Shown here: piece by piece, positions 5,457 to 44,710 of the stretch
How positions within the stretch are numbered: position 1 is the stretch's first letter
How the letters are laid out: every line of letters begins with the position of its first letter
Source of the DNA: a virus
Lineage: Duplodnaviria; Caudoviricetes
IMG/VR virus record: IMGVR_UViG_3300046804_000671
Location: 1 to 55,271 of that record
Length of the DNA stretch: 55,271 bases
Strand: one strand, 5' to 3'
The notes under the pieces: generated by a model
Database searches by the model: none
Told to the model about the DNA's origin: nothing
What the model saw: the letters and a program-made list of their open reading frames with translations, nothing else
Program-made: the position numbers and the translations under genes

Positions 5457-5460
5457 TAGA

Positions 5461-6102
5461 ATGGCGTTGACATATACGCAGCTTTCGCAGGCTATTCAAG
5501 ATTATTGTGAGTCAACGGAAACTTCGTTTGTCAACAACATTCCCCTTTTTGTCAAGCAGGCAGAGGATCGAATCAATAGATCGGTCGTTCTGCCTGCTTA
5601 CATTAAGAATGTTTCTGGTACTCTTACCGCTGGGAACAGATACCTTTCTACACCTAGCGACTTCCTTGCTCAGTTTTCTCTGACTGTCCTTGATAGTAGT
5701 GGACAGTATGTCAACCTAAACGAAGTTGACACAGCCTTTATCCGTGAGGCTTACGACGATATCACGGAACAAGATATTCCTCAGTATTATTCTCTTTTTA
5801 ATAATATTTCTTTCATTCTGGGTCCGACTCCGGATCAGAGCTATACAGTTAATCTAGAGTATTACTACGAGCCCGCCTCTATTTCCGTAACTGGAACAAG
5901 CTGGCTTGGCGATCATGCCGAAAGCTGCCTTCTGTACGCATGTCTTATTGAGGCTTACACATATTTAAAGGGTGAGCCTAATTTGCTCCAGTTGTACGAT
6001 ACAAAGTACAAGGAGAACCTTGCCAGACTTAAGAATCTTGGTGAAGGTTACAACAATAGAGACAACTTCCGCAGAAGGGACTTCAGCGTACCTGTTACAT
6101 GA
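5461..6102 (+). CDS. Putative head-tail adaptor / tail tubular protein A-like
   Basis: TYTQLSQAIQDY, LGPTPD and LLYACLIEAYTYLK motifs; start at MALTY. Confidence 0.65.
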   Translation: MALTYTQLSQAIQDYCESTETSFVNNIPLFVKQAEDRINRSVVLPAYIKNVSGTLTAGNRYLSTPSDFLAQFSLTVLDSSGQYVNLNEVDTAFIREAYDDITEQDIPQYYSLFNNISFILGPTPDQSYTVNLEYYYEPASISVTGTSWLGDHAESCLLYACLIEAYTYLKGEPNLLQLYDTKYKENLARLKNLGEGYNNRDNFRRRDFSVPVT

Positions 6103-13495: not shown

Positions 13496-15346
13496 ATGAC
13501 ACCTGAACTCCTTCCTATTCAGATCAAACCGGGAATCGTAAGAGATTCGACTCATTATGCAAACAAAGGAGGATGGTGGGATTGTAATTGGGTCAGGTTC
13601 AGAAATGGTTTTCCAGAGAAGATGGGTGGATGGACAACAGACCTTCATGAAACATTTCAGGGTGCATGCCGCTCTCTAATCAACTGGACTACAAACAACG
13701 GGCTTAACCGTACAGGATTTGGAACAAACCTCAAGTACTATATTCTGACAGGCGGAAACTACCAAGACATCACGCCAATCAGACGCACTGTTACACTTAC
13801 AAATCCATTCACCACAAACGGCACAACTACAGTTGTTGTGACTGATGCATCTCACGGATGTGTTGTGAATGACTTTGTGACATTCTCTGGCGCGTCTGCT
13901 GTTGGAGGAATACCGGCTGACGATCTAAACCAAGAACACCAGATTACAGAAATTGTAGATACAAACAACTACAAGATTGTAGTCAGCACTGCGGCAACAT
14001 CGTCAACGACTGGCGGCGGAACTGTCACCGCAGAATATCAGGTCAACACAGGACTTGATACATACGTCCCCGGCGTTGGTTGGGGTGCGGGGACTTGGGG
14101 AAGAAACGGATGGGGAACAGCCGCAGGCACTCCTACGGTTGGAACCCAGATTGGTCTTTGGTCTAATGCTCTGTTTGGAGAAGACCTTCTGATCAACCAG
14201 AGAAATGGTGGAATCTATTATTGGAGCGCAAGCACACCAAACGACAGGGCCATCAATATTACCGCCCTTCCATACGCTTCTGATGCTCCGACAATTGCAA
14301 CTGAAGTTCTTGTATCTGACGTAGACCGCCATGTCATCGCGCTAGGCTGCAACCAAATTGGAGATGCAGATCAGGACTTTATGAATGTCAGATGGTCCGA
14401 CACTGAAAGCTCCTCAAATTGGACGCCTCAGTCAACAAACACTGCTGGTGGATTCAGACTGTCAAACGGTTCAAAGATTGTAACAGGACTCAGAACCCGT
14501 CAGGAAATCCTTATTTGGACTGACAGTGCGATCTACTCAATGCAGTATATCGGCGCTCCATACGTGTTCAACCTTAACCTTCTTTCTGGATATACAAATA
14601 TCTCAGGGCCAAAGGCAAAGATTGTGGTCAATGATGTTGTATACTGGATGGGAAGGGATCAGTTCTATATCTACAACGGTAGAGTCAGTACGCTTCCATG
14701 TCCTGTAAGAGATTATATCTTTAGCAGACTGAATACAGATCAGATTGAAAAGGTGTATGCTGGATCTAATATTGCATACAATGAAATCATTTGGCTGTAT
14801 CCATCGACAAATTCAAATGAGAATGATTCTTACGTTGTATTTAATTACGTAGAAAATGTGTGGTATTTTGGTTCTATCTCAAGAACCGCTTGGCTTGACA
14901 AGACATTCGGACAGTATCCTACCGCTACAGATACTAATGGGAATTATTATTATCATGAATTTGGATTCGACGATGGTTCGACGAACCCGCCGTCTGCTAT
15001 TGACGCGTACATTGAGAGTAGTCCGATTGAAATTGGCACGGGCAATGACTTCATGTTCGTTCGACACGCAATCCCAGACCTTACGTTCAGGTCATCGACG
15101 GCTACTAGCCCTACTGTAACCTTCATCATGGAGGCACAGCAGCAGCCCGGAGGTCCGTATTCTGGAGAGCAGGATAAGAATGTTATAAAAACAGGTTCTT
15201 ATCCTGTTGACCAATTTACAGAAAAGCTGTATACTAGGATAAGGTGCCGTTCTCTTATCTTCAAGGTTGAGTCCAACCAGACTGGCGTAGGCTGGCGAGT
15301 TGGCACTCCCCGTATTATGGCCTCTACAGATGGTCTTAGAGGATGA
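13496..15346 (+). CDS. Tail tubular/nozzle protein (P22 gp10 / T7 gp12-like)
   Basis: 616-aa beta-propeller-like protein with VRFRNGFPEKMGGW and VRWSD motifs; position before the ejection proteins. Confidence 0.7.
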   Translation: MTPELLPIQIKPGIVRDSTHYANKGGWWDCNWVRFRNGFPEKMGGWTTDLHETFQGACRSLINWTTNNGLNRTGFGTNLKYYILTGGNYQDITPIRRTVTLTNPFTTNGTTTVVVTDASHGCVVNDFVTFSGASAVGGIPADDLNQEHQITEIVDTNNYKIVVSTAATSSTTGGGTVTAEYQVNTGLDTYVPGVGWGAGTWGRNGWGTAAGTPTVGTQIGLWSNALFGEDLLINQRNGGIYYWSASTPNDRAINITALPYASDAPTIATEVLVSDVDRHVIALGCNQIGDADQDFMNVRWSDTESSSNWTPQSTNTAGGFRLSNGSKIVTGLRTRQEILIWTDSAIYSMQYIGAPYVFNLNLLSGYTNISGPKAKIVVNDVVYWMGRDQFYIYNGRVSTLPCPVRDYIFSRLNTDQIEKVYAGSNIAYNEIIWLYPSTNSNENDSYVVFNYVENVWYFGSISRTAWLDKTFGQYPTATDTNGNYYYHEFGFDDGSTNPPSAIDAYIESSPIEIGTGNDFMFVRHAIPDLTFRSSTATSPTVTFIMEAQQQPGGPYSGEQDKNVIKTGSYPVDQFTEKLYTRIRCRSLIFKVESNQTGVGWRVGTPRIMASTDGLRG

Positions 15347-17587: not shown

Positions 17588-18010
17588 ATGCATATTAAAC
17601 AAGTTCCTTCTCAGTATGTATCACTGGTCTGGCCGGTGATCAAGGCATTTGTAGATAAGTCAGCAAAGTACTCTGGAGACAGAACAGAGTCAGAAGATAT
17701 CAGGCAAGACTGTGAAAATGGAACAGTCTTTCTCTGGGTTGCCCATGATGACAATCATGATACCCATGGATTTGTTACAGGTCAATTTCTTGACTATCCG
17801 GGAATGAAGGTTCTCGCCCTCCAGTTCACAGGAGGAAGAAGATTGCGTGAGTGGTCTTCAGATATGTGGAACACATTGGAATCATTTGCTCGCGACAACG
17901 GTTGCTCAAAGATTGAGGGCGCTGGCCGAATTGGTTGGTTGCGCTTCATGAAGCAATTTGGATGCACGCCAGCATTCTATATATATGAAAAGGATTTAAG
18001 AGATGGGTAA
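17588..18010 (+). CDS. GNAT-fold protein in the ejection-gene cluster
   Basis: FARDNGCSKIEGAGRIGW motif; position matches the acetyltransferase-like gene in podovirus internal-protein clusters. Confidence 0.6.
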   Translation: MHIKQVPSQYVSLVWPVIKAFVDKSAKYSGDRTESEDIRQDCENGTVFLWVAHDDNHDTHGFVTGQFLDYPGMKVLALQFTGGRRLREWSSDMWNTLESFARDNGCSKIEGAGRIGWLRFMKQFGCTPAFYIYEKDLRDG

Positions 18011-19535
18011 AGGTGGACAGCAGCAACAGCAGCCGCAGCCTACAAGCTCTACGGTTACACAGTCAAACATTCCTGAGTACGCGCGTCCGTATTTCGAAAA
18101 CCTGCTCCAGAGAGCGCAGGCTACAAGCGAGCAGCCATATACTCCTTATACAGAACAGAGGATTGCAGACCTAGCGCCGCAGACAACTAAAGCCATCAGC
18201 AATATCTCAGCCAGCCAAGGCATCGCCACACCATATATTAACGCCGCTGGAGGCGCTCTTGGGAATGCCTCAGCAAGCATCAATAATGCTGCTGGGTATC
18301 AGGCACCGACAATCGAGAGTCAGTATCAAGCTTCGCCAATTACATCAAGCTATCAGCCGGGGCAGATTGGAAGCAACTACACTCCCGGAATTATCAGCAG
18401 CACGTATCAGGCTCCAAATATCCAAAATACGTATAACGCCGGAAACATTAGCTCACAGTATCAGGCTGGCAGCTATACGCCTACGTCAGGAATTATGCAG
18501 CCTGCTCAGATGTGGAATCAGCAGCAGGCCCAGCAGTATATGAGTCCGTACCAGCAGTCTGTTACAGATGTCGCCAAGAGAGAGGCGGCCAGACAGTCGG
18601 CTATTGGTGGACTTGGAGAGCAGGCTCAGGCCACTCAGGCTGGAGGATACGGCGGCTACAGACACGGACTTGTTGAAGCAGAGAGAGCCAGAAACCTTAG
18701 CCAGCTTCAGAACCAGATTCAGGTTCAGGGAGATCAGGCAGCGTATAATCAGGCGGCTCAGCAGTTTGGAGCAGATAGAGCCGCCCAGCTTGCGGCAGCG
18801 CAGGCGGCGCAGAACGCTTCCCAGTTCCAGTATGGAGCGACCCAGCAGGCACAGCAGACACAGGGCGCGCAGAGCCTTCAGGCACAGCTTGCCGCAGAAC
18901 AGGCCAGACAGACTCAGGGAGGTATGTCTCTGCAAGCTCAGCAGGCGATGGCACAGGCTCTACAGGCTCAAGGAGCGCAGAGTCTACAGGCTCAACAGGC
19001 CACAGAACAGGCAAGACAGACTGGAGGAGCGCAGTATCTTCAGGGTCAGCAGCTTGCAGAACAGGCTGGTCAGGCCGCAGGAGCGCAGGGAATTCAGGCG
19101 CAACAGGCCACGCAGCAGGCTCTACAGAATCAGGGCCTACAGTCATTGCAGGCGCAGCAGGCCAATGCTCAGGCTCAGCAGCAGGCCGCCAATCTTTGGC
19201 TCGGCGCTGGGCAGGCTGGTCTTGGACTAGCTCAAGGCTTGGGTTCACTTGGCACCACCGCTCAGAAAGCCGGTGCGTTCGATACCAGTCAACTTCTCAC
19301 TGCTGGCAATATTCAGCAGCAGGCACAGCAGGCGCAGCTTAATCAGAAATATCAGGACTTTCTATCTCAACAGTACTACCCGATGCAGCAGGAACAGTTC
19401 CTCAGTTCAATCCTCAGAGGACAGGTCATTCAGCCCAGCACTCTTCAGGCTACATACCAGCAGCCGTATGATCCTGTGTCTCAGGCTCTTGCTCTGGGCA
19501 TTGGTGGCGCTGGCCTTGCTAGGGCTTTCGGATAA
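18003..19535 (+). CDS. Gln/Ala-rich DNA ejection (pilot) protein
   Basis: MGKGG N-terminus, IPEYARPY, YMSPYQQSV and GGYGGYR motifs; internal 9-aa and 18-aa repeats. Confidence 0.7.
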   Translation: MGKGGQQQQQPQPTSSTVTQSNIPEYARPYFENLLQRAQATSEQPYTPYTEQRIADLAPQTTKAISNISASQGIATPYINAAGGALGNASASINNAAGYQAPTIESQYQASPITSSYQPGQIGSNYTPGIISSTYQAPNIQNTYNAGNISSQYQAGSYTPTSGIMQPAQMWNQQQAQQYMSPYQQSVTDVAKREAARQSAIGGLGEQAQATQAGGYGGYRHGLVEAERARNLSQLQNQIQVQGDQAAYNQAAQQFGADRAAQLAAAQAAQNASQFQYGATQQAQQTQGAQSLQAQLAAEQARQTQGGMSLQAQQAMAQALQAQGAQSLQAQQATEQARQTGGAQYLQGQQLAEQAGQAAGAQGIQAQQATQQALQNQGLQSLQAQQANAQAQQQAANLWLGAGQAGLGLAQGLGSLGTTAQKAGAFDTSQLLTAGNIQQQAQQAQLNQKYQDFLSQQYYPMQQEQFLSSILRGQVIQPSTLQATYQQPYDPVSQALALGIGGAGLARAFG

Positions 19536-19545
19536 GGAAATAAAA

Positions 19546-22341
19546 ATGGCTCTTTCACTTAATCAGGCTCAGGCCATTGTTCAGAAGCTCTCAAACGAAC
19601 AGCTTATGCAGGCCTATACAAGCGGAACCATTCCACAGTTTGTGGTCTTCTCAGAGATGCAGAGAAGACAGAACATGGCGAACTCTCAGGCCAAGGCACC
19701 AACACAGACTGTTGCCGAGAAGATGATTGGCAGCGAGGAGCCAGAAGGCATTGCCTCAATGCAGCCGCCACAAATGGCAGCCAAGGGCGGAATCACAAAG
19801 GTTTCGCCTCTCTCAATGGGTTATTCAGAAGAACTCCCCAGAGAAGCATTGAAGATTATTGAAATGCGCCGAAAGCAGATGCAGGATCTGGAGGAACCCG
19901 ATTACAATCCTCCTCAGTATGCTGCTGAGGGTGGCGCTCTCAGGCTTGCTGGTGGCTCCGATGGAGATTACGTGTACTCAGGAGACACAGAAATTGCAGA
20001 GGCACCAGTTTCTAGAACTGACATTCCGTCTCCAAGCCCACCTCCAGTTGTTTCTAAGGGTGATTTTAATCCTTCAGGTATTGTTTCTCCTGAATATATT
20101 TTCAACAAGTTTAAGCAGCTTGGATATTCGGATCAGGCTGCCGCCGCGCTTGCCGGTAATGCTCAGCATGAAAGCTATGGAAACCCTAGACAGAAGCAGA
20201 TCAAAGGACCCGGAATGGGTCTCATGCAGTGGAGTCCTGACAGATTCAACAGCTTGATTGATTATGCCAATTCGAAAAACATCAACCCATATGATGTAGA
20301 TACACAGATTGATTTCATTCATAATGAACTTGGTGGAAAAGAGGCATCAAGCGGAAAGAAGCTCAGATCAGCAAGCAGCCTGAATGACGCGAATAACGCA
20401 GTTCTTTCTTATCTTAGGCCAAAGAATTATTCCGCAAAAGACCCGACAAAGACAATTCATTATAATGACAGATACAGGAACGCGGCACAAATTCTTGGAA
20501 TTGGTTCAGAGCCTCCCAGAGTTAGGCCAGAGGGAGCTGATACATATGTTCCGCAAAGGCAGGGAGCCATCAATCCCACTCAGGGAGGAGATGTATATTA
20601 TTCTAGATTTATGTACCCAGAAAAGAAAAAAGAACAGACAGATTCAGAAAGAGGTCTCGCTGCGTTGAGGGCCGCCCAGATTGTTCAGTCAATTGGCAGA
20701 CCTCCAATGAACAGAAACAATGGTGGTCCTATTTATCTTAATGAAAGTTCAGACGGAACACCTGTTAGCTCTGGAGAAGTAAAGAAAACTCCTTTTGGAA
20801 ATATGCTTACACTATCAAATGGAGAAGAAGTTATCATTCCTCCGGGCATGAGTGTAGATGACGCAAAAAGAATTTTCTCAAGAACTCCAACATCTACTCC
20901 GGGTGTAAACCCTCAGGCTGCTCCTGTGCATACAGATTCTGGATCAGTCCCTCAGAAGATTTACGAAGGAACAAAGGGTCTGATCGGGAGAATGTGGGAT
21001 GCTGTCCCGTCTAGGGAGGAAGCTGGTCAGGCTGTCGACAGATTTGGATCTGGCATCAAGAGTATCTACGAAGGTGCCACGGCTGGAAAGCGCAGACTTG
21101 AGAGTGCCAGAACTGCTACTCCCGGCGCTCCTTATACAGCCACTGGAATTGGACTTCCCGGTATCGGAGACGATGAGGCTTATCAGGAGGAGGCTCCCAA
21201 GTCTTCTATTGCCGGTCGCTGGCTTGATGAATCAACCAGCGGACTAAGCACTTGGCTGAAAGGAAACCCGCTTTCTCACGAACTTCAGGCTCTCATTGAT
21301 GAGAGAGAGAAGTATGAAACAGGCCTCTTTGAGGAGCTTACTGACAAGCAGAGAGAAGAGAGAGCTAAGAAAATTTCTCAGATCGATACACAGATTGCTG
21401 CTGTCCGCGCAAGAATGAAGGAAGGCTTCGAAGACCCAAGCACCAATAGATCTATGCAGCCTAAGCCTGACGGCACTACTTTTCCTAGGTCTGTTGATGG
21501 CGGTGGACCGGCTGGGACTGAGCCTCCTGTTCCTCCTCAGGGTATTCCGGGCGCTCCGAGGGCCAGACCTCCTGTTGGAGGAGATAAGGGTATTCCTACC
21601 GCTGGTTCTGCTCAAGGTGGTGTCGGAGGAGTTGGTGGCTCTGGTGCTGGCGCTCCGGGTGGTGCTGGAGAAGATCAGTCATTCTCTCAGGTTCTCAAGC
21701 AGGTCAAGGATGCCATTGGATCAAGTGTTCCTGACGAAATGAAGGAACAGATGAAGCAGCATCAGAATGCTCTGCGAGAGATGGGCAATAATAAGTTTAT
21801 TGACGCCATGCTTTCTGCCGCGAAGACACTTGCCGGTCAGAGAAAGGGTAGCGTCAACTTTGCCGACGCGGTTGCAAACGCTGGACTTGCTGCTCAGGTT
21901 GCCAAGGAAAAAGAAAGAAAAGCTGAAGATGACATGCGTAAGTATAGAATTGAGGCAATCAAGCTTGAGCAGGAGGGCAACAAGACCGCCGCTACTCAGG
22001 CCATGAACTATGTCATTCAGGCTAACCATGACAAGAGAGCGCTCCAGACTGCGATGATGCAGACATCAAAGATGATTCAGGCTCAGGAAGCTTCCGACAG
22101 AAGAGCAAATATTGCCGCTTCTACAAAGGAACTTGTTGCGGCAGAATCAAAGCTTGCTGATCTCAATAGAATGATTCTCAATCCTCAATCATTTGGCATC
22201 ACCGATACGAAGGCTCTTGAGATTGAGAGAGACAGACTTAATCAGCAGATCCAAGGCGCTGAAGCGGCCCTAAAGTACTGGCAGACAGGAACCAACTATG
22301 ATGCGGTTCGTGCCGAAGCCAAAAGAAGAGGACTTATTTAG
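19546..22341 (+). CDS. Internal virion protein with phage-tail-lysozyme domain
   Basis: AAGGA RBS at MALSL; GYSDQAAAALAGNAQHES...GLMQW...QIDFI lysozyme motif at ~20100-20490. Confidence 0.75.
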   Translation: MALSLNQAQAIVQKLSNEQLMQAYTSGTIPQFVVFSEMQRRQNMANSQAKAPTQTVAEKMIGSEEPEGIASMQPPQMAAKGGITKVSPLSMGYSEELPREALKIIEMRRKQMQDLEEPDYNPPQYAAEGGALRLAGGSDGDYVYSGDTEIAEAPVSRTDIPSPSPPPVVSKGDFNPSGIVSPEYIFNKFKQLGYSDQAAAALAGNAQHESYGNPRQKQIKGPGMGLMQWSPDRFNSLIDYANSKNINPYDVDTQIDFIHNELGGKEASSGKKLRSASSLNDANNAVLSYLRPKNYSAKDPTKTIHYNDRYRNAAQILGIGSEPPRVRPEGADTYVPQRQGAINPTQGGDVYYSRFMYPEKKKEQTDSERGLAALRAAQIVQSIGRPPMNRNNGGPIYLNESSDGTPVSSGEVKKTPFGNMLTLSNGEEVIIPPGMSVDDAKRIFSRTPTSTPGVNPQAAPVHTDSGSVPQKIYEGTKGLIGRMWDAVPSREEAGQAVDRFGSGIKSIYEGATAGKRRLESARTATPGAPYTATGIGLPGIGDDEAYQEEAPKSSIAGRWLDESTSGLSTWLKGNPLSHELQALIDEREKYETGLFEELTDKQREERAKKISQIDTQIAAVRARMKEGFEDPSTNRSMQPKPDGTTFPRSVDGGGPAGTEPPVPPQGIPGAPRARPPVGGDKGIPTAGSAQGGVGGVGGSGAGAPGGAGEDQSFSQVLKQVKDAIGSSVPDEMKEQMKQHQNALREMGNNKFIDAMLSAAKTLAGQRKGSVNFADAVANAGLAAQVAKEKERKAEDDMRKYRIEAIKLEQEGNKTAATQAMNYVIQANHDKRALQTAMMQTSKMIQAQEASDRRANIAASTKELVAAESKLADLNRMILNPQSFGITDTKALEIERDRLNQQIQGAEAALKYWQTGTNYDAVRAEAKRRGLI

Positions 22342-22343
22342 TA

Positions 22344-25300
22344 ATGGACCTTTCATCTCTCTCTGACGAAGAACTGATGCATCTGTATAACAGCGGAGGC
22401 AAGAAGTCAAAAGATCTTTCGTCTATGTCTGACCAGCAGCTTATGGATTTGTATGGAAGGCTTTCTCCACCAAAGCCTCCCGCTACCAGAGCAGAAGAGA
22501 AGAAGGCACAGGAAGAGCCGGGAGTATTTGGTAGGCTTGGCAAAGAGTTTAGTCGCCAGACAGAAAGCCTTATCTCTTCAGGCAGAACAGCATACGAGAC
22601 TCTCACAGAAGAAGACAAGGCTGCTGTTGCTCATAGAGCAGAAGAGAGACAGAAGAAGATTGCGGAGAAGTATGGGCCGGAGAGAGGCCTTGCTGAAGTT
22701 CAGAAGGCATACGAAGAGAAGGGAATTCTTCCTGCCGCTGGAGAAGTTCTGTATCAGGTTCCGGGTGCCATTGGTTCTATTCTTCCGACAATGGCTGGTG
22801 GTATTGTTGGCGGATTGGTTGGAGGCCCCGCTGGTGCCGCTATTGGCATGGGTGCTGTTTCTGGCGCTACACAGTTGGGAACAAATCTAGAGCGTCAGTT
22901 TGAGAAGCAGGCAAATGAAGGGAAGCCAATCGACCCGGATGTAGGAGCCGCTGCCATTGGCGCTCTTGCTCAGGCTGGACTTGATACCGCTGGCTTCATG
23001 ATTCCATTCGGTAAGGCAATCATTGCTCCATTCTCAAAGGTTGCATCCAAGAGCGGGACTGCTGCCGCTGAGAAGCTTGCCGCCGAGTCAATCACCAAGA
23101 CCCTTGCAAAGGGTACTGCTGTTGGAATGATCGCTGAAGTTCCGACAGAAGTCGCACAGCAGATGATCGAAAGATATCAGGCTGGATTGGATCTGTTCTC
23201 GGATGATGCTCTAAAGGAATATGCAGAGATTGCATATAAGACTTCAATCAGCGTTGCTCCTCTTGGCGGCCCCGGAAGGATGATTGAGAAATCAGGAGCC
23301 AAGGCTCAGGTTGCAAAAGCAGCCGCCGACGAGGAAGAGAAGAAGCGTCTTGCCGCAGAGGAGACGCAGTACGTTGGTCAGAGACAGCAGGAATTCATTC
23401 AGGCTGATGAGGCCAGACGACAGCAGGAGCAGGCTCAGTCTGAAGAGGCTGCTAAAGCTGCTGGAATGGGATATGTTCCCAAGCTTGAAGCTCCACCAAA
23501 GAGAGCAGAGGATAGTGCCCCCGCTCCAGAAGAGAGAACATACCCAGAACTCAGGGGTGACAATTTTGTAATTGTTGGAGAGAAGAGCGGAAACCCTGTT
23601 CAGGGTGGCTTCAGAACAATGGAAGAGGCAAAGGCTGCTTCAGATAAATTCAATTCATTGTTTGAAGAATCGGAAGGTAGGGCAGAAGAAGAAGAACTTA
23701 AGTCTATTCGCAAACAGCACGGCGATCTTCTTAAGGCTCTTGCAAACCCAGACTATATTCCAATTGACAAGTCTAAGCTTAAGGGGTCTGACGGTTGGCT
23801 CGCGCTTAAAATCAATGAACATAGAAGAAACCGTGGCGCTGACGACCGCACAATTGCATCTAACATTACATATCCTGCTGAAATTGCAGAACTGAATATT
23901 CACAACCCGAAGGAACTGTCTGACAGACTTATTGAAGAGCAGTACCCCGGAGTAAAGGCAAAGGGTCTAACAATCCCCGCGCTTGGTGCTACGGCAAGAG
24001 GTGAAGCTCTAATTAATAAGCATGATACAATCGATTCAATTCCGAAGAGAATGACCAAAGATCTAAAGGTCATCGCTGCCGAAAATGGAATTGAAGTAAA
24101 TGCAGGAACAAAGCCTCTAGATGTAATCAACAACCTTAGAAAGATTTCTGGAAGAGATGCTCTTGTTAAGGAAGAAGAGCAGCTTGGAAAAAATAGACCT
24201 GCAATTGTTAGCGCCCAGCCAGATAGCATAACTAGGCAGGCCAGAGAGCAGCAGATCGCTGAAGAGAGAGCCTCTAAAGATTGGGAGAACAGCCCTGTCC
24301 GTCCGTTTTCTGAGGCTGTTGAGAAGCAGCAGGATAGAGTAAACAAGCTTACAGAAGCTGCCGAAAAAGCCAAAAACAACAAGGCCAAGGTCGCTCTACA
24401 GAAGCGTATCGACAAGGCTCAGGAACAGCTTAATGAGGCCCAGAATAATCTTAACGAGGCCAAGAAGAAGTACGGAGTAACAGAAGGACCGTACCGCCCA
24501 GCGGAAGTAATCGGCCAGCAGAAGGTTCAGGAACAGTCCAAGATGAAGGCTGCCCTGAAGACCGCATTCGACAGGATGGGTCTGACCAAGCAGGGCATCT
24601 CGCCTCAGGTCGTGGACTATCTGGCCAATGAACAGGGTCAGGCACAGAGAGGTGCCGGTGCTGTAGAGGCCGAGTACAATCCTCAGGCCAAGACAATTAC
24701 CTTCGCCTCAGATATCTACGATCCAAACCTTTCTGTTGACCAGATCGTTGACAAAATGATGGACGTTCTCAACCATGAGATCATCCATTCCCTGAAGGCC
24801 GCTGGTCTTTTCACCAAGCCTGAATGGAACATCCTTGAGAACTTCGTGAAGAGCGGAGAAGGCAAGAGATTCCTTGAGCGTGCCAAGATTGTCTATCCAG
24901 ACTTGTCCACAGAGGCACAGATCGAAGAGGCTGTTGCGGAGGCTGCCCGTGCCTTCAAGGCTGGCGACTTCAAGCCTGTTGGAAAGCCAAGAAGTCTTTT
25001 CGAACGCATCATCAACTTCTTCAAGAGTATCTTTTCAACAGCCAAGACAAACAACACCACACCTGACGCCATCTTCAATGCAATAAGAACTGGAGAGATT
25101 GGTGGTCGCAAGGCCACGCAGGATGCCGCCAAGACGCAGCCTATGCAGTCAAGGGTTGGCGACAATGGAGGCCCTCCACTGGAGGAAAAGAAGAACTGGA
25201 TCAACGTTCCTAGACTTCTCCAGTTCCTTGGCAGTCAGATGTACAAGAATGACATTGGTCAGGTTGCTTCGAAGGAGCTTATTCAGAATGCCTTTGACTC

Positions 25301-28300
25301 AGTGAAGATGGCTCAAGCTCAGGGCGTGTTGCTTGGGCCGGGAAAGATTATCTATGATTATCATTCCAAAGAAAACATCATGAAGGTGTCCGATAACGGT
25401 ATCGGAATGGACGAAGATGTTCTTCGCAAGGCGTTCTTTACTGTATTCGGAAGCGACAAGAAGGGACTTGATCCAAAGGAAAGATCAGGTGGATTTGGTC
25501 TTGCAAAACTTGCTTATCTTCTTGCGGCTGAAGACATCAAAATCAAAACTACAAAGGATGGAGTAACGTATAGAATTCATACTTCTGGTGAAGCCATCAA
25601 GAAGATGTATGAAGATGGAACTGACATTAAGATTGACAAGGAGTCAACTCCCAGCGCGCCAAATGGAACTTCTGTCGAGGTTAAAATTCCCAAGGAATCT
25701 GTCGACAGAATGTCTGGGAATAAAGTTGAGAATTCAGTTTTGTATCCTCGTGTTCTTCATGGACGTAATAGAAAGTTCATCGGCAACGCCAAGTTCTACG
25801 AAAGAGCTTACTGGCAAAGAGATGAAGAGCCTGAAGAGATCAAAGAACTTACAGACCTAAGTGAGTTTGATCCTCCTCAAACAAAAAAGTTTTCATGGGG
25901 AGAAGTTGACGTATATCTTGGCAGGAAGCTTGAAGAAGGCAGCGAACGCGCTCAGGTTTTGAGCGCTGGAGTTTATCAGTTCAATTATTCTATTATGGAT
26001 AATTTTAAGTCTCCAAAGATTAAGTCGATATTCAATGTAAAGCCATACAACACTCCAGCCCCAATTGATCTTGAGGAGTACATCGGAGAAGGAAAGAAAG
26101 AAGGAACATCAACAGCATATCCGTTTACACCTGATAGAGAGAACTTCTCTGAGTTTGTCAAGGGAGACTTGGGGACACTTGAAGCAATTGTCTGGAAGAG
26201 GCATAACGATTTGGTTATGCAGAGCCAAGTCAAGGCGATGTCATCGTTTTATAAGATGAAGCAGTCTAGTGGAGAGTCTGGCGGTGGATTTAGATTCAAG
26301 AGCATTAGCAGCCCAACAAATACCTCAGGCAAGTCAACCCAGTTTGAGAAGGTTGATGTCGGTCTTAGCGACATAGACATTAAAAACAATGTTTTTACTG
26401 GAGACAAGAGTAAATTTCCTTCTTTTGAGCCTTACTTCCACAACAATCTTGACATTGACATTGTAGAAAAGGCCGCTAGCGAACACGGCATCCAGCCAGA
26501 AAGAGCAAGGCAGTTCTTCTTTGAGCTTGGCAAGGTTGTTCATGATTTTTCGTTTAAGAATATTGCTGCTGTTGCTGAGGTAAATCCTGATTATAAGTCA
26601 TATCTCCCCGGAGCGGAAGAAAGAATTGCTGGAATATCACTGGATAAGGATTACGCTGGAGTCAATGCAAGATTCCCACTTTCCGGCATGTACCTAAATC
26701 CTTTCTACACTGAATTCTTTTCATCTAGAAATATCAAACTTACTCCGTCAATAATGGGTCCGTACTGGCTCAGAGTAATGAAACACGAAGCAGCTCATGA
26801 AGTTGCAAGAGGACATAACAATGATTTCTGCGTAGAAGAGGTTGTGCTTGACACACTTCTTCACGACACCGATGGTAAAGCTGGACCAACCATGTCAAAC
26901 CTCATGAAGAGGTTTGAAAAAATCTATTCAGATTATCTAACAGAATATGAGGCGATGAAAGATGTCTACGACAGAGATGATACGAAAAACAATTCTACTT
27001 CCCTCGATGACCAAAGGCTCAGCGAAGGACCCGAACTGGAAGAAGACTCTGGAAGAAAGGCTGTTCGGTCTAGAGATGAGTATGTTTCTGGTAGAGAAAG
27101 ACAAGAGGTCGCGTCCGGAAGACAAGAAGGAAGCGAAGGAGGTTTCTTTGTTCCTAAAGGAATGTCTATCGAAGCTGAAAGCGTCACCGACCAAGGAAGT
27201 GTTCGCCAAAAGAATGGGCCTGTAAAGCAGGCAAGAGTTGGTCCTTCCAATCCTGTGAATATTAATCTTAATACACCTACGCAGGTTGGAAGAAGCAACC
27301 AGATCAACCAGCTTATCATTAACAACAATAGATATCTTTCTCAGCTTACCGCTGAAGAGGGCACTCGCACTTCCCAAACCTACAAAGACTATATCAAGGA
27401 AGTGATTGACCCATTCCATATGCTTGGTAAGGGTGCTGACAAGTTCCGCATTGCTAGGGCGCTTCTTGTCGGAAACATTGCCGAGATGACCAGAAAGGTC
27501 AATGACTACGTCAAGGCTATCGGTGATGCCAAGGGAGACAAGAAGGCTATCTACGATTACCTGACAACAAGAGGTGCCCTGCCTGACCGTATTGGTAATG
27601 CTGAAGCAAGAAGGGCGGCGGTCGCCGTCAAGGATATCATCAACGATATCGGAGACGAGCTTGTCAGGCAGAATCTGATCAGCCAGAACGAAAGAAACCG
27701 CTTCCTTGATTCGTATCTGCCCAGAGTATATCTGGCTTATATCGATAAGAAGCATGTCAGGGGAGGCATCAAGCCTTCTTACCAGTACTACCTTGAGCAT
27801 CGTCAAGACTTGACTGAGGAGGAGAGAACCCGCCTCGGAGAGATTGACGATCCTGCATTCCTTGTTCAGGAAGCTCTGTTCTCTCCGCTCCGTGATCTTG
27901 CCATTCTAAACTTCTTCAAGAAGATCAATGACATTGGACAGGGTCAATGGATCATTGGGATGGATGCAATCAGATATACAAACCCTTCAGGGCATACATA
28001 CCAGAAGTCACTGCCTGAACTGAAGATGTTCAAGCATAGACTTGAAAGCATGATCTCTGATGGAACGGTTGAGCCTTCAAGGGCTGCTGTTGCAAACGAC
28101 GAGCTTGCTCATCTCACTTCGTTCATCAATAACGTCGAGAGCCAGCTTGACGCCAACGTTGACAAGGGAAGATACATTAAGGTTGCCAAGGACCCGAAGA
28201 GATTCGGTCCTTTGGCTGGAGTGTGGCTTGCTCGCCCAATCTACAGAGACATCATGGGAATGGGTTCATTCGTTCCAAACGACATGAGCGCCGTTGCTGC

Positions 28301-29771
28301 CGCGTTCTCTGATGGTGGCCTAATGGCCAAGGCTACCCGCCACTTCAAGGTGGCAAAGGTCGCCATGAATCCTCCTACCATTGTCACAAACATTATCTCC
28401 AATACACTTATGATGCATTTCGCTGATGTGCCAATGCGTCTAATCTTCCCTAGGGTTGCCAGCGTGTTCAAGGAGATTGTTGTAGACAAGAGAGGAAGAT
28501 ACTACGATCTCGTCCATAAGTACGGACTCAAGGAAACAACACTGTCTGAGGTTGAGCTTCACCGTCTGTACGATGAACTCCGCAATAGACAGATTGGTTC
28601 ATCTGGACTCGGCAATGTCATGGGCATGTTCAATGCACTTGGCAGAGCATATGGAAATCTTGAAGACAAGGCCAGCAATATGTACGGCTCAATCGAGACC
28701 GTCTTCAAGGCGGCCGTCATCAAGGATGCCATCGAGCGTCAGGGTCTGTCTGAGGAGCAGGCTGTACTCAAGGCAAACAAGTACCTGTTCGATTACAGCG
28801 AGGTTCATGACTCAGTTAAGGCTCTCAGAAACGTTCCGTTCGGAGCGCCGTTCTTGACTTGGTCCTACAAAATGACTCCGCTGCTCATCGAGACGGCTCT
28901 TACAAAGCCTTGGAAGTTCGCCCCATATGCCATGCTGTTCGCTGGCGTGTCAATGTACGCCTCTGCTGCAATGACTGATGCTGGCGGCGATCCTGAAGAC
29001 AAGGACAAGATGAAAAAGTTCATCTCGCTCAAGGCTGCACAGAACCCAATGCTTCTTGCATACAGCCCAACAGATGCGTTCGATTTCGGCAAGTACATGC
29101 CTTTCAACAACATCTATAAGTTTGCCGACGCTCTTCTTAAGGGTGACTTTGTTGAGGCGTTCAAGGCGTTCGGATTCTTCGGAGGACCAATCGCTGATCT
29201 TGGTGTGGCGTTGCTTGCCAAGAAGGACCCATTCACTGGTAACGATATCTTCCCGAAGGGAGCATCATACGACGAGAAGGTTGCCCTGTCATTCAACTAC
29301 CTTCTCAACTCCTTCACTCCTTCATTCATGAAGGATATGCCTAGGTTCATTGCTGGGCACGGCATCAGCGATACTGAGCTTATCGCTGGCGCTGAGTCTC
29401 CGGTTGTCAACCTGTTGAAGAAGGTGTTTGAAGATCCAACTGGCAAGAAGCCCGGAATGCCTACAAAGGATTACGGTGAAATCTTTGCCAACATCTTTGG
29501 GTTCAATATCTACCATCCGTCATTCGCTCAGTATGCAATGAACCTAAACAAGTTCAACAGAGAGATCGATGACATCAAGACTGGTAGAAGAAACGCATTG
29601 ATGGACCCCACCCTGTCAAAGGGTGAGATCGAAAGCATCAACAAGAAGTATACAAAAATGCTTGAGGAGAAATCCAAGGAACTCCGAGACTTTGTCAAGG
29701 ACTCCAAGATTTCTCCACAAGTTATGGAAGTCATCAGGCAGAGCGTTGAGGGTACAGCGAGGAGCAAATGA
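22344..29771 (+). CDS. Large polyvalent ejection protein with two HExxH metallopeptidase-like motifs and a GHKL ATPase domain
   Basis: 2475 aa; HEIIH (~24774), ELIQNAFD/DNGIGM/GGFGLAK/NGTSV (~25270-25680), HEAAH (~26784). Confidence 0.75.
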   Translation: MDLSSLSDEELMHLYNSGGKKSKDLSSMSDQQLMDLYGRLSPPKPPATRAEEKKAQEEPGVFGRLGKEFSRQTESLISSGRTAYETLTEEDKAAVAHRAEERQKKIAEKYGPERGLAEVQKAYEEKGILPAAGEVLYQVPGAIGSILPTMAGGIVGGLVGGPAGAAIGMGAVSGATQLGTNLERQFEKQANEGKPIDPDVGAAAIGALAQAGLDTAGFMIPFGKAIIAPFSKVASKSGTAAAEKLAAESITKTLAKGTAVGMIAEVPTEVAQQMIERYQAGLDLFSDDALKEYAEIAYKTSISVAPLGGPGRMIEKSGAKAQVAKAAADEEEKKRLAAEETQYVGQRQQEFIQADEARRQQEQAQSEEAAKAAGMGYVPKLEAPPKRAEDSAPAPEERTYPELRGDNFVIVGEKSGNPVQGGFRTMEEAKAASDKFNSLFEESEGRAEEEELKSIRKQHGDLLKALANPDYIPIDKSKLKGSDGWLALKINEHRRNRGADDRTIASNITYPAEIAELNIHNPKELSDRLIEEQYPGVKAKGLTIPALGATARGEALINKHDTIDSIPKRMTKDLKVIAAENGIEVNAGTKPLDVINNLRKISGRDALVKEEEQLGKNRPAIVSAQPDSITRQAREQQIAEERASKDWENSPVRPFSEAVEKQQDRVNKLTEAAEKAKNNKAKVALQKRIDKAQEQLNEAQNNLNEAKKKYGVTEGPYRPAEVIGQQKVQEQSKMKAALKTAFDRMGLTKQGISPQVVDYLANEQGQAQRGAGAVEAEYNPQAKTITFASDIYDPNLSVDQIVDKMMDVLNHEIIHSLKAAGLFTKPEWNILENFVKSGEGKRFLERAKIVYPDLSTEAQIEEAVAEAARAFKAGDFKPVGKPRSLFERIINFFKSIFSTAKTNNTTPDAIFNAIRTGEIGGRKATQDAAKTQPMQSRVGDNGGPPLEEKKNWINVPRLLQFLGSQMYKNDIGQVASKELIQNAFDSVKMAQAQGVLLGPGKIIYDYHSKENIMKVSDNGIGMDEDVLRKAFFTVFGSDKKGLDPKERSGGFGLAKLAYLLAAEDIKIKTTKDGVTYRIHTSGEAIKKMYEDGTDIKIDKESTPSAPNGTSVEVKIPKESVDRMSGNKVENSVLYPRVLHGRNRKFIGNAKFYERAYWQRDEEPEEIKELTDLSEFDPPQTKKFSWGEVDVYLGRKLEEGSERAQVLSAGVYQFNYSIMDNFKSPKIKSIFNVKPYNTPAPIDLEEYIGEGKKEGTSTAYPFTPDRENFSEFVKGDLGTLEAIVWKRHNDLVMQSQVKAMSSFYKMKQSSGESGGGFRFKSISSPTNTSGKSTQFEKVDVGLSDIDIKNNVFTGDKSKFPSFEPYFHNNLDIDIVEKAASEHGIQPERARQFFFELGKVVHDFSFKNIAAVAEVNPDYKSYLPGAEERIAGISLDKDYAGVNARFPLSGMYLNPFYTEFFSSRNIKLTPSIMGPYWLRVMKHEAAHEVARGHNNDFCVEEVVLDTLLHDTDGKAGPTMSNLMKRFEKIYSDYLTEYEAMKDVYDRDDTKNNSTSLDDQRLSEGPELEEDSGRKAVRSRDEYVSGRERQEVASGRQEGSEGGFFVPKGMSIEAESVTDQGSVRQKNGPVKQARVGPSNPVNINLNTPTQVGRSNQINQLIINNNRYLSQLTAEEGTRTSQTYKDYIKEVIDPFHMLGKGADKFRIARALLVGNIAEMTRKVNDYVKAIGDAKGDKKAIYDYLTTRGALPDRIGNAEARRAAVAVKDIINDIGDELVRQNLISQNERNRFLDSYLPRVYLAYIDKKHVRGGIKPSYQYYLEHRQDLTEEERTRLGEIDDPAFLVQEALFSPLRDLAILNFFKKINDIGQGQWIIGMDAIRYTNPSGHTYQKSLPELKMFKHRLESMISDGTVEPSRAAVANDELAHLTSFINNVESQLDANVDKGRYIKVAKDPKRFGPLAGVWLARPIYRDIMGMGSFVPNDMSAVAAAFSDGGLMAKATRHFKVAKVAMNPPTIVTNIISNTLMMHFADVPMRLIFPRVASVFKEIVVDKRGRYYDLVHKYGLKETTLSEVELHRLYDELRNRQIGSSGLGNVMGMFNALGRAYGNLEDKASNMYGSIETVFKAAVIKDAIERQGLSEEQAVLKANKYLFDYSEVHDSVKALRNVPFGAPFLTWSYKMTPLLIETALTKPWKFAPYAMLFAGVSMYASAAMTDAGGDPEDKDKMKKFISLKAAQNPMLLAYSPTDAFDFGKYMPFNNIYKFADALLKGDFVEAFKAFGFFGGPIADLGVALLAKKDPFTGNDIFPKGASYDEKVALSFNYLLNSFTPSFMKDMPRFIAGHGISDTELIAGAESPVVNLLKKVFEDPTGKKPGMPTKDYGEIFANIFGFNIYHPSFAQYAMNLNKFNREIDDIKTGRRNALMDPTLSKGEIESINKKYTKMLEEKSKELRDFVKDSKISPQVMEVIRQSVEGTARSK

Positions 29772-43938: not shown

Positions 43939-44177
43939 AGCTTATCCATCACCAGCCTAGTGATCAGCCTGCGTGCCTGATCCCTATATCCAGCACCAAG
44001 TTCCTCATCATTTGCCATGTCAGTGATGAGGTTCCTTGCTTCAAGGAAAAACTCGTAATCTTTGTACGATATAACCTTTTGTGTAAGTTGTGCCTGATTC
44101 GCTGAGGTTAATGTGAATGTTCCTGAATTAGGAACGCTTATAGTATTTTGATACGGCTTGACGGCAGTCATCTTCAT
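43935..44177 (-). CDS. Hypothetical protein
   Basis: AAGGA RBS; convergent overlap with the previous gene. Confidence 0.5.
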   Translation of the reverse strand: MKMTAVKPYQNTISVPNSGTFTLTSANQAQLTQKVISYKDYEFFLEARNLITDMANDEELGAGYRDQARRLITRLVMDKL

Positions 44178-44710
44178 GCTTCCTTTCTTTGGTTGTTGTG
44201 GTCCCATTCCCATGACCATACTCCCTTCTTCGCGGCATCAACCAATCGCCTAATCTTTTCGTTCTCCATGTACTTGGCGAACGCTTCGCTTTCAGCTTCG
44301 TATCTGCTGAATGACTTCAGCATGTACATACATGACGTATGATCCTTGTTTAGCAAGGAAGCAATATCGGGAAACGACCTCTTGTTAAGAGTTCGCTCAA
44401 GATATGTGAAGATGGAACGCGCAACAGCCATGCTGTGGTACCTCTTGTGGGGCACGCGGAGATCATCAAGATTAAATCCGCTAGCCTCATTGATTGACTT
44501 TAGTATGTGCAAAGTAAGCTTGTAGTCTGCCCTGTCTTTCCATCTAGACATGAAGCTATCAGGATGGTGAGCAGTTCCCACAAACTTCTTGAGATTGATC
44601 ATCTTAGACATATCAATCTCATTGATTGACATCTTCTTATAAGAAGATCCAATATAATCTTGCTGGGTCTTTGAAAGCTTTCTAACAAGCACAGGATCAA
44701 GTGGCTCCAT
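44174..44710 (-). CDS. Protein with DnaA C-terminal (domain IV) HTH
   Basis: ARSIFTYL...SFPDIASLLNKDHTSCMY matches the DnaA-IV RQIAMYL...SLPEIG..RDHTTV pattern. Confidence 0.75.
   Translation of the reverse strand: MEPLDPVLVRKLSKTQQDYIGSSYKKMSINEIDMSKMINLKKFVGTAHHPDSFMSRWKDRADYKLTLHILKSINEASGFNLDDLRVPHKRYHSMAVARSIFTYLERTLNKRSFPDIASLLNKDHTSCMYMLKSFSRYEAESEAFAKYMENEKIRRLVDAAKKGVWSWEWDHNNQRKEA

Follow-up and report, generated by a model that had tools for sequence, protein, structure and literature searches.

Residues 953-1556 of a giant phage protein form a single three-part unit, consisting of a GHKL ATPase, a transducer and a zincin of the HExxHx5H type. The unit is encoded within P0001, a polyvalent-type open reading frame of 2475 aa on the plus strand (22344..29771) of the window, by which we mean the whole 55,271-nucleotide stretch of viral DNA analysed. 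The linkage of the parts is obligate, with ATPase, transducer and zincin all present in 185 of 188 relatives; of the three exceptions, two are short, at 283 and 490 aa. A literature search found no paper describing this ATPase-zincin module, and for phage-delivered proteins we found no description of an Hsp90-type ATPase paired with a zinc protease. The module is a candidate for an ATP-switched weapon against the host.

The Hsp90-like GHKL (Bergerat) ATPase domain covers aa 953-1168 (25200..25847, plus strand) and is recognized by Pfam, a PDB profile, Foldseek and VIA. Its motifs are ELIQNAFD at aa 978 (nt 25275; E978, N982 and D985), DNGIGM at aa 1017 (nt 25392; D1017 and G1021), GGFGLAK at aa 1049 (nt 25488; G1049, G1050, G1052 and K1055) and (P)NGT at aa 1106-1109 (nt 25659; G1108 and T1109). 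Among the 188 relatives E978, N982 and K1055 are each kept in 186, D1017 in 187, and G1021 and G1052 in all 188; T1109 is found in 178, with serine at the same position in 8 more. A sequence-only reading of the same DNA had located the GHKL motifs, the HExxH motifs and the linkers discussed below in the 2475-aa frame, and all of them lie where it had placed them.

Pfam detects HATPase_c_3 (PF13589) at aa 974-1087, where the score of 31.3 bits exceeds the cut-off of 25. When a profile of the segment was compared with the PDB, TRAP1 and HtpG matched at an E-value of 1e-12, and all 60 matches listed were Hsp90-family chains. In an AlphaFold2 model of the module (pLDDT 82.1, pTM 0.78), VIA Z-scores over model residues 1-340 were 19.3 for GRP94, 18.3 for ParE, 17.7 for TopoVI-B, 16.3 for MutL and 16.2 for MORC2. 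These matches span both ATPase and transducer, the one to GRP94 with 286 residues aligned. Foldseek searches with the model returned Hsp90-family chains at E-values of 1e-12 to 1e-11 over ~370-450 columns. The Bergerat-fold ATPase expected from the motifs is thus real and no chance resemblance, with Pfam above its cut-off and Z-scores of 16-19 to Hsp90, ParE, MutL and MORC. From the earlier label of an Hsp90/MORC/MutL-type ATPase the Hsp90 part can be kept, but neither MORC nor MutL is nearest, the sequence being closest to Hsp90/HtpG/TRAP1. The NCBIfam model 'HSP90 family protein' scores 38.5 bits, where its cut-off is 455.

The second part, aa 1179-1295 (25878..26228, plus strand), resembles a transducer or Hsp90 middle domain and carries the loop YPFxxxRExF. 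R1265 of this loop is conserved in 185 of the 188 relatives, and E1266 in 142, with glutamine in 35 more. Judged by its position, R1265 would correspond to the catalytic arginine of Hsp90; the profiles align with Hsp90-family proteins and with rIIA over the N-terminal domain only. No dimerization domain is evident in the module.

The third part, Zn2, is a minimal zincin of the Wss1/WLM-like type at aa 1354-1573 (26403..27062, plus strand), with the motif HEAAHEVARGH at aa 1481 (nt 26784) and the residues H1481, E1482, H1485 and H1491. The first three are each kept in 183 of the 188 relatives, and position 1491 is histidine in 142 and glutamate in 41. The structural match to Wss1 is modest (VIA Z 7.1, with 114/128 residues aligned, and 6.6), and the profile matches are weak, to Wss1 at E-values of 0.0066 and 0.015 and to proabylysin at 0.017. 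The Zn2 segment of P0001 itself matched no zincin family of Pfam at E<=1; among 70 relatives, 27 matched the Pfam family WLM, 23 YgjP-like and 8 SprT-like. This downstream HExxH had been regarded as a flank of the ATPase, a view that has to be revised since HEAAHEVARGH belongs to the cassette itself and is inherited together with the ATPase in 185/188 relatives.

The upstream HExxH, HEIIH at aa 811 (nt 24774), belongs to Zn1, a separate gluzincin-type domain at aa ~797-930 (24732..25133, plus strand) with H811, E812, H815 and E862 invariant in an alignment of 17 sequences (A4). Zn1 occurs in just 16/188 module relatives, where it may precede or follow the module, and is a domain apart that moves independently. 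In P0001 it lies directly 5' of the first linker, ~15 residues upstream.

It is strongly confirmed that the module travels as a cassette, as had been proposed from the sequence. The cassette comprises aa 940-1633 (~690 residues; 25161..27242, plus strand) and is missing from near-identical relatives: P0004 and P0192 have flanks that are 98.0% and 99.2% identical and differ in length by 668 aa, which is this segment. Between P0002 and P0214, whose flanks are 87-89% identical, an unrelated insert of 181 aa replaces the module at the same site. The similar linkers noticed on both sides mark the edges exactly, with QPMQSRVG (aa 932-939; 25137..25160, plus strand) as left and PVKQARVG (aa 1626-1633; 27219..27242, plus strand) as right boundary. 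The motif Q[SA]R[VIL][GS] is present once in P0190 and P0192, which lack the cassette, and twice in the proteins that have one; the 181-aa alternative, which encodes no protease, is also flanked by it. For Q[SA][RK][VI][GS], a pattern set post hoc, P0001 has exactly 2 occurrences where 0.034 are expected from composition, and the six frames of the rest of the window have only one more, in an open frame of 122 codons. The linker motif is conserved solely in a close clade (P0001-4, P0190, P0192, P0193/P0214); beside the module in other relatives none was found, save one upstream near-match in P0117. Its retention among close kin is weak evidence that it may be a cleavage site. Composition does not set the cassette apart (GC 0.429, GC3 0.409), since aa 1-700 of the same gene are equally low in GC3 (0.41-0.44).

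The module is widespread. It is found in 745 protein clusters at E<=1e-3 (406 at E<=1e-10, 119 at E<=1e-30), mostly in polyvalent proteins of 2-7 kaa, and 157 of 201 candidate stretches of viral contigs encode a relative. Domains that accompany it in the carriers are ART-PolyVal, LPD38, LPD39, SLT, GGDEF, InPase, a PIF1-type helicase and ResIII/methylase; free-standing module genes of 533-812 aa occur as well (L060, L082, L083, L085, L086). The carrier part of P0001 also includes an N-terminal domain (aa ~50-330; 22491..23333, plus strand), which recurs N-terminally in 17/188 module-bearing proteins and has hydrophobic Gly/Ala-rich stretches at aa 141-172 and 202-220, and a conserved C-terminal backbone (aa 1640-2475; 27261..29768, plus strand), which is common to 29 giant proteins with varied cargo and is possibly related to LPD38.

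The giant gene is the final plus-strand gene of the structural block. Its upstream neighbour, listed at 1030 aa (19249..22341, plus strand), contains a Phage_lysozyme2 domain at aa 282-415 and has the look of a protein that is internal to the virion or ejected from it. The genes that precede the giant gene on related viral contigs are phrog_3287 'virion structural protein' (L003, L004, L031), phrog_4287 'DNA ejection protein' (L003, L040) or phrog_511/342 'internal virion protein' (L060). The proposal of a giant carrier is borne out in its polyvalent-type architecture and in its place at the end of the structural gene block. Judged from synteny and the polyvalent-protein concept, P0001 is probably injected along with the phage DNA.

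Our preferred reading, which we hold tentatively, is that the swappable linker-bounded cassette encodes an ATP-gated protease effector that is ejected, freed at the linkers and acts on a host client. The carrier is a polyvalent protein of the internal-virion type, and the cassette, placed between its Zn1 and its C-terminal backbone, would ride in the ATP-free capsid and leave it when the DNA is ejected. Once in the host cytoplasm, binding of ATP would close the GHKL-transducer unit, to whose ATPase the transducer may supply its conserved Arg-Glu loop, and this conformational switch would gate the attached Zn2 protease onto a bound client, most probably a host protein and possibly one that is defence-related or DNA-bound. 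Cleavage at both linkers, probably by Zn1, would free the unit from its carrier.

The ATPases of MORC, MutL and topoisomerases close on DNA. The unit might instead be an ArdC-like anti-restriction factor, closing on incoming DNA while its protease strips off bound host proteins, with restriction enzymes or nucleoid proteins as proposed targets. The Z-scores of 16-18 to ParE, TopoVI-B, MutL and MORC2, nearly those to GRP94, speak for such a clamp, as do the descriptions of Wss1 and SPRTN as DNA-dependent proteases that degrade DNA-bound proteins (bioRxiv 10.64898/2026.09.30.754977), of ArdC, which is encoded by mobile elements and contains a metalloprotease domain, as overcoming hsdRMS restriction (PMC7213743), and of anti-restriction domains as frequent in polyvalent proteins (PMC5512222). 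We nevertheless consider it unlikely: no DNA-binding domain or motif was found in the cassette, the ATPase groups in sequence with Hsp90-type ATPases that act on protein clients, and ArdC is not among the best 50 VIA matches to the module. Closer to the sequence-only reading, and in our view rather improbable, is a built-in chaperone that refolds the ejected cargo or carrier or protects the DNA, the zincins serving only to split the polyprotein. Its nearest sequence relatives are indeed the chaperones TRAP1, HtpG and Hsp90, the cassette has linkers on both sides with Zn1 shortly before the first, and autoproteolytic release by the peptidases of polyvalent proteins has been proposed (Iyer et al. 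2017, PMC5512222). A pure chaperone would, however, have no need of the zincin that its ATPase is never without in complete proteins. The close relatives P0190 and P0192 have no cassette, so the carrier can be ejected and refold without it, and the missing C-terminal dimerization domain and the low NCBIfam score set the module further apart from Hsp90.

We regard two more readings as very improbable. The module could act in the producing cell without being injected, either in assembly or maturation or in protecting against abortive infection like rIIA, and be trimmed before or during packaging. Among deposited phage genomes the GHKL proteins nearest to the module are those of rIIA, and cleavable linkers would permit removal in the prohead, but rIIA shares the ATPase part alone and no zincin, the module accompanies classic injected-effector domains such as ART-PolyVal, and the gene sits among internal-virion and ejection genes. 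Alternatively, Zn2 and the ATPase might have no host target and serve self-processing alone, as a maturation protease that depends on ATP and cuts the carrier at the QSRVG linkers in the cytoplasm. ATP would be a natural cue for arrival there. The linker copy number does double with the cassette; yet the cassette-less P0190 and P0192 keep one linker and Zn1 with no Zn2, the 181-aa alternative is motif-flanked without a protease, and the free-standing module genes have nothing to be cut from.

Compared with the Hsp90 family (HtpG, TRAP1, GRP94), to which it is ~14-16% identical, the module shares the pattern LLxxLGxxMY...KELxQNxFD of N-terminal helix and motif I as well as the conserved Arg-Glu loop of the second domain. 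Hsp90 continues into a C-terminal dimerization domain, whereas the module has a zinc protease in that place. With Wss1 it has in common HExxH, a third histidine six residues on and then an aromatic residue (tLiHELtHNvhgeHdssF versus tmiHElaHt..rnHgasF), but Zn2 is fused to a GHKL ATPase where the Wss1-type zincin partners Cdc48/p97, and SUMO- or ubiquitin-binding parts are absent. Among 50,697 deposited phage records rIIA is the sole relative of the ATPase, with tblastn matches over the first ~186 residues only. hhalign relates the module to rIIA with a probability of 96.6% (E 4.9e-10, 163 columns), and rows 5-44 of a BFVD Foldseek search are mostly rIIA, aligned over ~360 columns. The homology is confined to the ATPase, as rIIA has no zincin, and rIIA is free-standing, outside any giant structural-block protein. 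rIIA is an early protein paired with rIIB.

The polyvalent proteins described by Iyer, Burroughs, Anand, de Souza and Aravind (2017, PMC5512222) from phages and conjugative elements are, like P0001, giant and multidomain with zincin-like peptidases and mixed cargo, and the carriers of module relatives hold comparable ART-PolyVal, LPD38, LPD39, SLT, GGDEF and SNF2/methylase-type domains. The main text of that paper does not mention GHKL, HATPase, Hsp90, histidine kinase, gyrase or Bergerat, and we found in it no description of the ATPase-zincin unit or of the linker-bounded cassette site. Among antiphage systems, the PADLOC models did not match the module at E<=0.01.

The nearest parallel in the literature searched is Tiamat, an antiphage protein related to NO VEIN and SACSIN (bioRxiv 10.64898/2026.09.30.754977); the sacsin SR1 domain itself reaches a VIA Z of just 9.8 to the module. 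As described in that preprint, Tiamat has an Hsp90-like ATPase, with an arginine from the ATPase extension, and a dead Wss1-like fold in the substrate-binding position. Both proteins thus combine an Hsp90-like ATPase with a Wss1-like metalloprotease fold in a setting of phage-host conflict. The fold in Tiamat lacks HExxH and is judged inactive, whereas the module keeps the motif in 183/188 relatives; Tiamat has TPR-like folds instead of the S5-type transducer present in the module, and its effector is a PD-(D/E)xK nuclease, which the module does not have. Tiamat is directed against phages, whereas the module gene is the phage's own.

The 2475-residue giant protein encoded on the + strand at 22344-29771 (P0001 among its relatives; residue numbers refer to it) carries a GHKL ATPase that is real by sequence and by fold. 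Every motif named in the sequence-only reading was found in this ORF at the position assigned to it, and the GHKL motifs are present in order (E978-N982-D985, D1017-G1019-G1021, G1049/G1050/G1052 and G1108-T1109). Pfam recognizes the domain above its cut-off (PF13589, HATPase_c_3, 31.3 bits; cut-off 25), and a PDB profile search with the segment retrieved TRAP1, HtpG and Hsp90 at E 1e-12. An AlphaFold2 model of the module, built from a 20-sequence alignment (mean pLDDT 82.1, pTM 0.78), contains the Bergerat fold, and Foldseek places HtpG, TRAP1, Hsp90 and GRP94 first (E 1e-12 to 1e-11). The kinship with MORC and MutL that had also been proposed was not borne out: all 60 of the 60 sequence matches listed are Hsp90-family proteins, and MORC and MutL are reached by fold alone, with Z-scores of about 16. 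Neither the C-terminal endonuclease/dimerization domain of MutL nor the coiled-coil/CW parts of MORC were found by Pfam.

The first 340 residues of the model comprise the Bergerat domain and a second, transducer-type domain. Structural comparison of this part by VIA-align gave GRP94 (Z 19.3), ParE (18.3), TopoVI-B (17.7), MutL (16.3) and MORC2 (16.2), and the structural alignments run through both domains in the 43 kDa fragment of ParE (287/380 residues) and the N-terminal domain of MutL (279/333). Profile alignments of the module to an Hsp90-family protein and to rIIA end after the first domain. Among 188 relatives, gathered by two independent searches, the ATPase residues are nearly invariant, each GHKL motif being kept in 178-188 (E978 in 186, N982 in 186, D1017 in 187, G1021 in 188, G1052 in 188, K1055 in 186 and T1109 in 178), as is the arginine of the transducer loop YPFxxxRExF (R1265 in 185; E1266 in 142, with Gln in another 35). 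In its middle domain Hsp90 carries an SRE-type catalytic loop immediately ahead of a helix. The Arg-Glu loop of the module precedes helix 318-349 of the model and thus lies in the same kind of place, a likeness by position alone. Membership in the Hsp90 family proper was rejected (NCBIfam NF010683, 38.5 bits against 455; HtpG NF003555, 18.3 against 371), and where Hsp90 has its C-terminal dimerization domain the module has a zincin. The ATPase is Hsp90-like and not an Hsp90. A homodimer prediction for the ATPase and transducer, run on two copies of model residues 1-345 together with ATP and Mg, scored 0.01 against a mark of 0.42, uninformative either way.

BLAST and HMM comparison with the relatives revealed that residues 953-1556 behave as one block, made up of the GHKL domain (953-1168), the transducer (1179-1295) and a small zincin with the motif HEAAHEVARGH (Zn2, 1354-1573), which is set off from the transducer by a long helix and a linker that is modelled poorly. 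All three parts are present in 185 of the 188 proteins; two of the remaining three are short, with 283 and 490 residues. The picture of a GHKL domain set between two HExxH motifs therefore has to be redrawn: both motifs are in place, but the downstream one belongs to the unit and co-occurs with it in those 185 proteins, and the upstream HEIIH, read earlier as the other flank, lies in a separate domain (Zn1, residues ~797-930) that accompanies the module in 16 of the 188 carriers, on either side of it.

In Zn2 the putative ligands follow the pattern H1481-E1482-H1485-H1491, with the third zinc ligand six residues past the second His. H1481, E1482 and H1485 are each kept in 183 of the 188 relatives, and at position 1491 there are 142 with His and 41 with Glu. 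The predicted fold resembles Wss1 (VIA, Z 7.1 with 114/128 residues aligned, and Z 6.6). A profile of 70 sequences, consisting of the window and 69 of 80 viral loci after exclusion of 11 near-duplicates, reached Wss1 (E 0.0066 and 0.015) and proabylysin (0.017) in the PDB, and Pfam assigned WLM to 27 of these sequences (best 4.2e-6), YgjP-like to 23 and SprT-like to 8. We call Zn2 Wss1/WLM-like and not a proven member, because these matches are weak and the window's own Zn2 segment has no match to WLM, YgjP-like or SprT-like at E<=1. The two active sites look intact and are consistently found together, on a unit that travels as cargo and is able to stand alone; the unit is likely an active ATPase-protease cargo.

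In Zn1, H811, E812, H815 and E862 do not vary across 17 sequences, and in its model (pLDDT 78) helices come after two strands. Three zincins, PprI (Z 4.8), anthrax lethal factor (Z 4.6) and ArdC (Z 4.1), are among its best VIA rows and are not separated there from unrelated proteins; neither Pfam, a PDB profile search nor Foldseek at E<=0.001 gave a match. In the Atlas it hits unnamed clusters only; in the one at rank 15, LPD23 is assigned to 20% of the cluster. The idea that Zn1 is a duplicate of Zn2 was rejected, the match being insignificant and limited to the HExxH helix (independent E 0.28). An HExxH with a Glu on a helix further along is in keeping with how Iyer et al. (2017, PMC5512222) describe the peptidases of polyvalent proteins. 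Zn1 is a probable, if unproven, gluzincin.

The module sits in an exchangeable cassette, residues 940-1633 or positions 25161-27242, and here alignment with homologues amply upheld what had been suspected from the sequence. A search with the C-terminal 796 residues found 29 giant proteins with this backbone, and several of the close backbone relatives (52-57% identity) are 1740-1835 residues long and have no ATPase. Three arrangements recur: the N-terminal domain, Zn1, a single linker and the backbone (P0190, P0192); the same with linker, module and linker between Zn1 and backbone (P0001-P0004); and Zn1 followed by linker, an unrelated 181-residue insert, linker and backbone (P0193, P0214). 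P0004 and P0192 are 98.0% identical over residues 1-910 and 99.2% over the last 858, and differ by exactly 668 residues. Similarly, P0002 and P0214, the latter a full-length cluster mate of P0193 with 1945 residues found on 14 contigs, have flanks that are 87-89% identical around an exchanged cassette. The alternative insert (P0214 residues 921-1101, P0193 residues 352-532) occupies the same site as window 25161-27242 and is mostly helical-looking; it is flanked on both sides by QSRVG and has no Pfam match.

The two similar linkers noticed earlier, QPMQSRVG (932-939) and PVKQARVG (1626-1633), are true cassette boundaries, because the junction of P0192, which reads ...GGTMQSRVSAPRL..., fuses what lies to the left of linker 1 in P0004 to what lies to the right of linker 2. 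Linker copies outnumber cassettes by one. The linker was rejected as a flanking element of the module in general: it is seen in the close clade only, with one upstream near-match in P0117. Two close relatives that lack Zn1, P0189 and P0191, also lack the linker motif, a pattern that fits a protease and its site and that counts as weak evidence because the two proteins are kin. The giant gene is a mosaic in GC3 (0.41-0.44 over residues 1-700, 0.61 in Zn1, 0.41 in the cassette and 0.57 in the C-terminal backbone), which suggests that it was put together from parts of different origin. Whether the cassette is compositionally foreign is not decided by these values, since it lies below its immediate flanks (0.57-0.61) and equals residues 1-700. 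The backbone reached an Atlas score of 0.98 to LPD38 clusters, and hhalign against LPD38-bearing proteins gave a probability of 87.7% (E 3.4e-6) over 145 columns lying outside the Pfam LPD38 stretch; a relationship of the backbone to LPD38 is a lead only.

The window is a single contig of 55,271 bp, and its phage identity is clear from a major capsid protein, two SU10-type adaptor paralogues, tail-fibre-like proteins and an endolysin, all on the + strand; most of the replication and nucleotide-metabolism genes are on the - strand, among them that of a 191-residue protein with a DnaA C-terminal helix-turn-helix domain (44174-44749, -; PF08299, E 1.6e-9). The adaptor paralogues (Pfam SU10_adaptor; 3896-4579, +, E 7.7e-15, and 5404-6102, +, E 2.9e-25) suggest a podovirus whose neck is SU10/phiEco32-like. 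Among the scanned window ORFs of at least 150 residues neither a terminase nor a portal was recognized, and at its 5' end the first ORF is open. Because the same giant protein is also recorded from a contig of 62,601 bp, the window probably represents only part of its genome.

The giant gene is the last of the structural block and is directly preceded by the gene of a 1030-residue protein with a Phage_lysozyme2 domain (19249-22341, +). The listed TTG start of that ORF is overlapped by a 510-residue ORF (18003-19535) over 287 nt, and its real start is probably further downstream. Neighbourhood annotation, which covered 10 of the 12 related viral loci and 63 of their 84 ORFs, placed a 'virion structural protein' (phrog_3287), also encoded in the window at 13496-15346, upstream of the giant gene in L003, L004 and L031, a 'DNA ejection protein' (phrog_4287) in L003 and L040 and an 'internal virion protein' (phrog_511/342) in L060; replication genes follow downstream on the opposite strand. 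The giant protein's N-terminal domain has Gly/Ala-rich hydrophobic stretches, and a PHROGs search with the protein gave just three weak families, none of known function. Synteny with internal-virion, ejection and lysozyme genes makes it reasonably likely that the giant protein and its cargo are delivered in the virion.

The module is widespread. A HMMER search of 1.84 billion representatives found 745 clusters at E<=1e-3, of which 406 reach <=1e-10 and 119 reach <=1e-30. Most are proteins of 2000-7000 residues, and the module's position in them varies. The carriers also hold ART-PolyVal, LPD38, LPD39, SLT, GGDEF, InPase, PIF1-type helicase or ResIII/methylase domains, which is the vocabulary of polyvalent proteins. 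An alignment-based scan of IMG/VR showed a relative encoded in 157 of 201 candidate stretches, and a single-sequence scan of viral contigs found no close relatives. Across prokaryotic genomes, one per species, the module occurs in six loci (L081-L086), all on MAG contigs. The bacterial scan yielded 89 relatives among 178 stretches, with a near-full-length match for L081, L084 and L085 alone; L082, L083 and L086 have separate genes containing the whole module, and the other bacterial matches are different GHKL proteins. The 24 ORFs scanned from 77 bacterial loci are mostly HD-CE plus GHKL proteins (~1000-1130 residues) or Hsp90-family proteins (~600 residues). The former (L092, L093, L095, L099, L103, L114, L116, L124, L130 and similar loci) have an N-terminal HD-CE domain (PF24391) and, ~360 residues in, an Hsp90-like GHKL domain with the shared KELxQNxFD motif; this large bacterial family looks like a conflict system and is distinct from the phage module.

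At the sensitivities used, the unit is absent from deposited phage genomes: across 50,697 records nothing spans more than 31% of the module, and the partial matches are rIIA. By tblastn the whole giant protein found one record, through its C-terminal part alone, the module found 4 and its free-standing relative P0049 found 21, all of rIIA-type N-terminal regions, and no match with module or P0049 reached 80% of the query. In BFVD there is one full-length structural match, A0A516L4L2 (E 2.3e-37, 633 columns, 25% identity), with rIIA, giant-virus Hsp90 and topoisomerases below it. Its entry, A0A516L4L2_1, is a UniProt viral protein fragment of 1404 residues.

GHKL ATPases with a transducer change conformation upon ATP binding, and the capsid is free of ATP. 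Because of this, the fusion of ATPase and protease is most simply understood as a switch. The ATPase would keep the attached protease quiet until the cytoplasm is reached and then close it on a client. That ATP gates proteolysis of a host target is a conceivable outcome that we regard with some doubt. Release of the unit by cleavage at the linkers, as the sequence-only reading had proposed, is possible at somewhat less than even chances, and should the linkers be cleaved, it would be a coin toss whether Zn1 is the protease.

Several rival readings were considered. The unit could be a DNA clamp whose Wss1-like protease clears proteins from DNA in an ArdC-like manner. A built-in chaperone would account for the Hsp90-like half. 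An rIIA-like action inside the producing cell can appeal to the ATPase, the one part that rIIA and the module have in common (hhalign probability 96.6% over 163 columns). Self-processing only would keep the protease to its own carrier; against it stand the modules encoded as genes of their own (533-812 residues; L060, L082, L083, L085, L086), which keep the HExxH, with a slightly longer spacer in two. At L060:6885-15156, on a 63.5-kb viral contig, three adjacent ORFs of 899, 812 and 970 residues take the place of the giant gene; the second of them consists of the ATPase-zincin module and nothing else, and the third has matches to C-termini in two giant PHROG families, 14770 and 616.

The switch reading in its fullest form describes an ATP-dependent protease of a new kind. 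An Hsp90-type GHKL clamp would grip a client and gate a Wss1-type zinc protease; the injected effector would be silent in the ATP-free capsid and turned on by cytoplasmic ATP; and the Q-S-R-V-G linkers would serve both as joints for recombination that swaps cargo and as cleavage sites for the carrier's own zincin, Zn1. The protease would then be the catalytically live counterpart of the dead protease fold in the Tiamat, NO VEIN and SACSIN lineage. All of this holding together is unlikely.

Polyvalent proteins are thought to be a phage's first weapons in a cell, and to our knowledge hardly any of the cargo has been put to the test. A widespread, sharply bounded and apparently active ATPase-protease unit is now defined. 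Near-identical carriers that have the cassette, lack it or bear another in its place are natural controls, so that its contribution to infection is directly testable, and the linker-delimited insertion site offers a simple rule for locating further cargo domains. All ATP-dependent proteases we know of are AAA+-based; if ATP gating is true, a GHKL-based design would be added to them, and Tiamat, NO VEIN and SACSIN, with their inactive Wss1-like fold, would gain a functional reference.

With Zn1, the module and the C-terminal backbone in one 2475-residue ORF, we class the giant protein as polyvalent, because a zincin-like peptidase and unrelated domains are joined in it and relatives carry ART-PolyVal, LPD38 and LPD39. 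The main text of Iyer et al. (2017, PMC5512222) contains no GHKL, HATPase, Hsp90, histidine kinase, gyrase or Bergerat, and its supplementary tables may bear on this. In the accessible part of a jumbo-phage survey GHKL is mentioned for topoisomerase and rIIA alone, and a full-text literature search found no ATPase-zincin unit of this kind described for phage proteins. The antiphage protein Tiamat (2026 preprint, bioRxiv 10.64898/2026.09.30.754977) is reported to have an Hsp90-like ATPase with an arginine supplied from an ATPase extension, and a Wss1-like fold, lacking HExxH and presumably inactive, in the substrate-binding position. The module itself is not Tiamat, as PADLOC gave no match at E<=0.01 and Pfam neither the DUF3684 middle region nor the PD-(D/E)xK nuclease NOV_C; where Tiamat has TPR-like folds the module has a transducer, and a nuclease is missing from it. 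Within polyvalent-protein cargo, the module is an obligate unit of Hsp90-like ATPase and Wss1-like zincin, widespread in uncultured phages. Tiamat is its nearest parallel, on the host side, and the phage module has the same pairing with the protease apparently alive.
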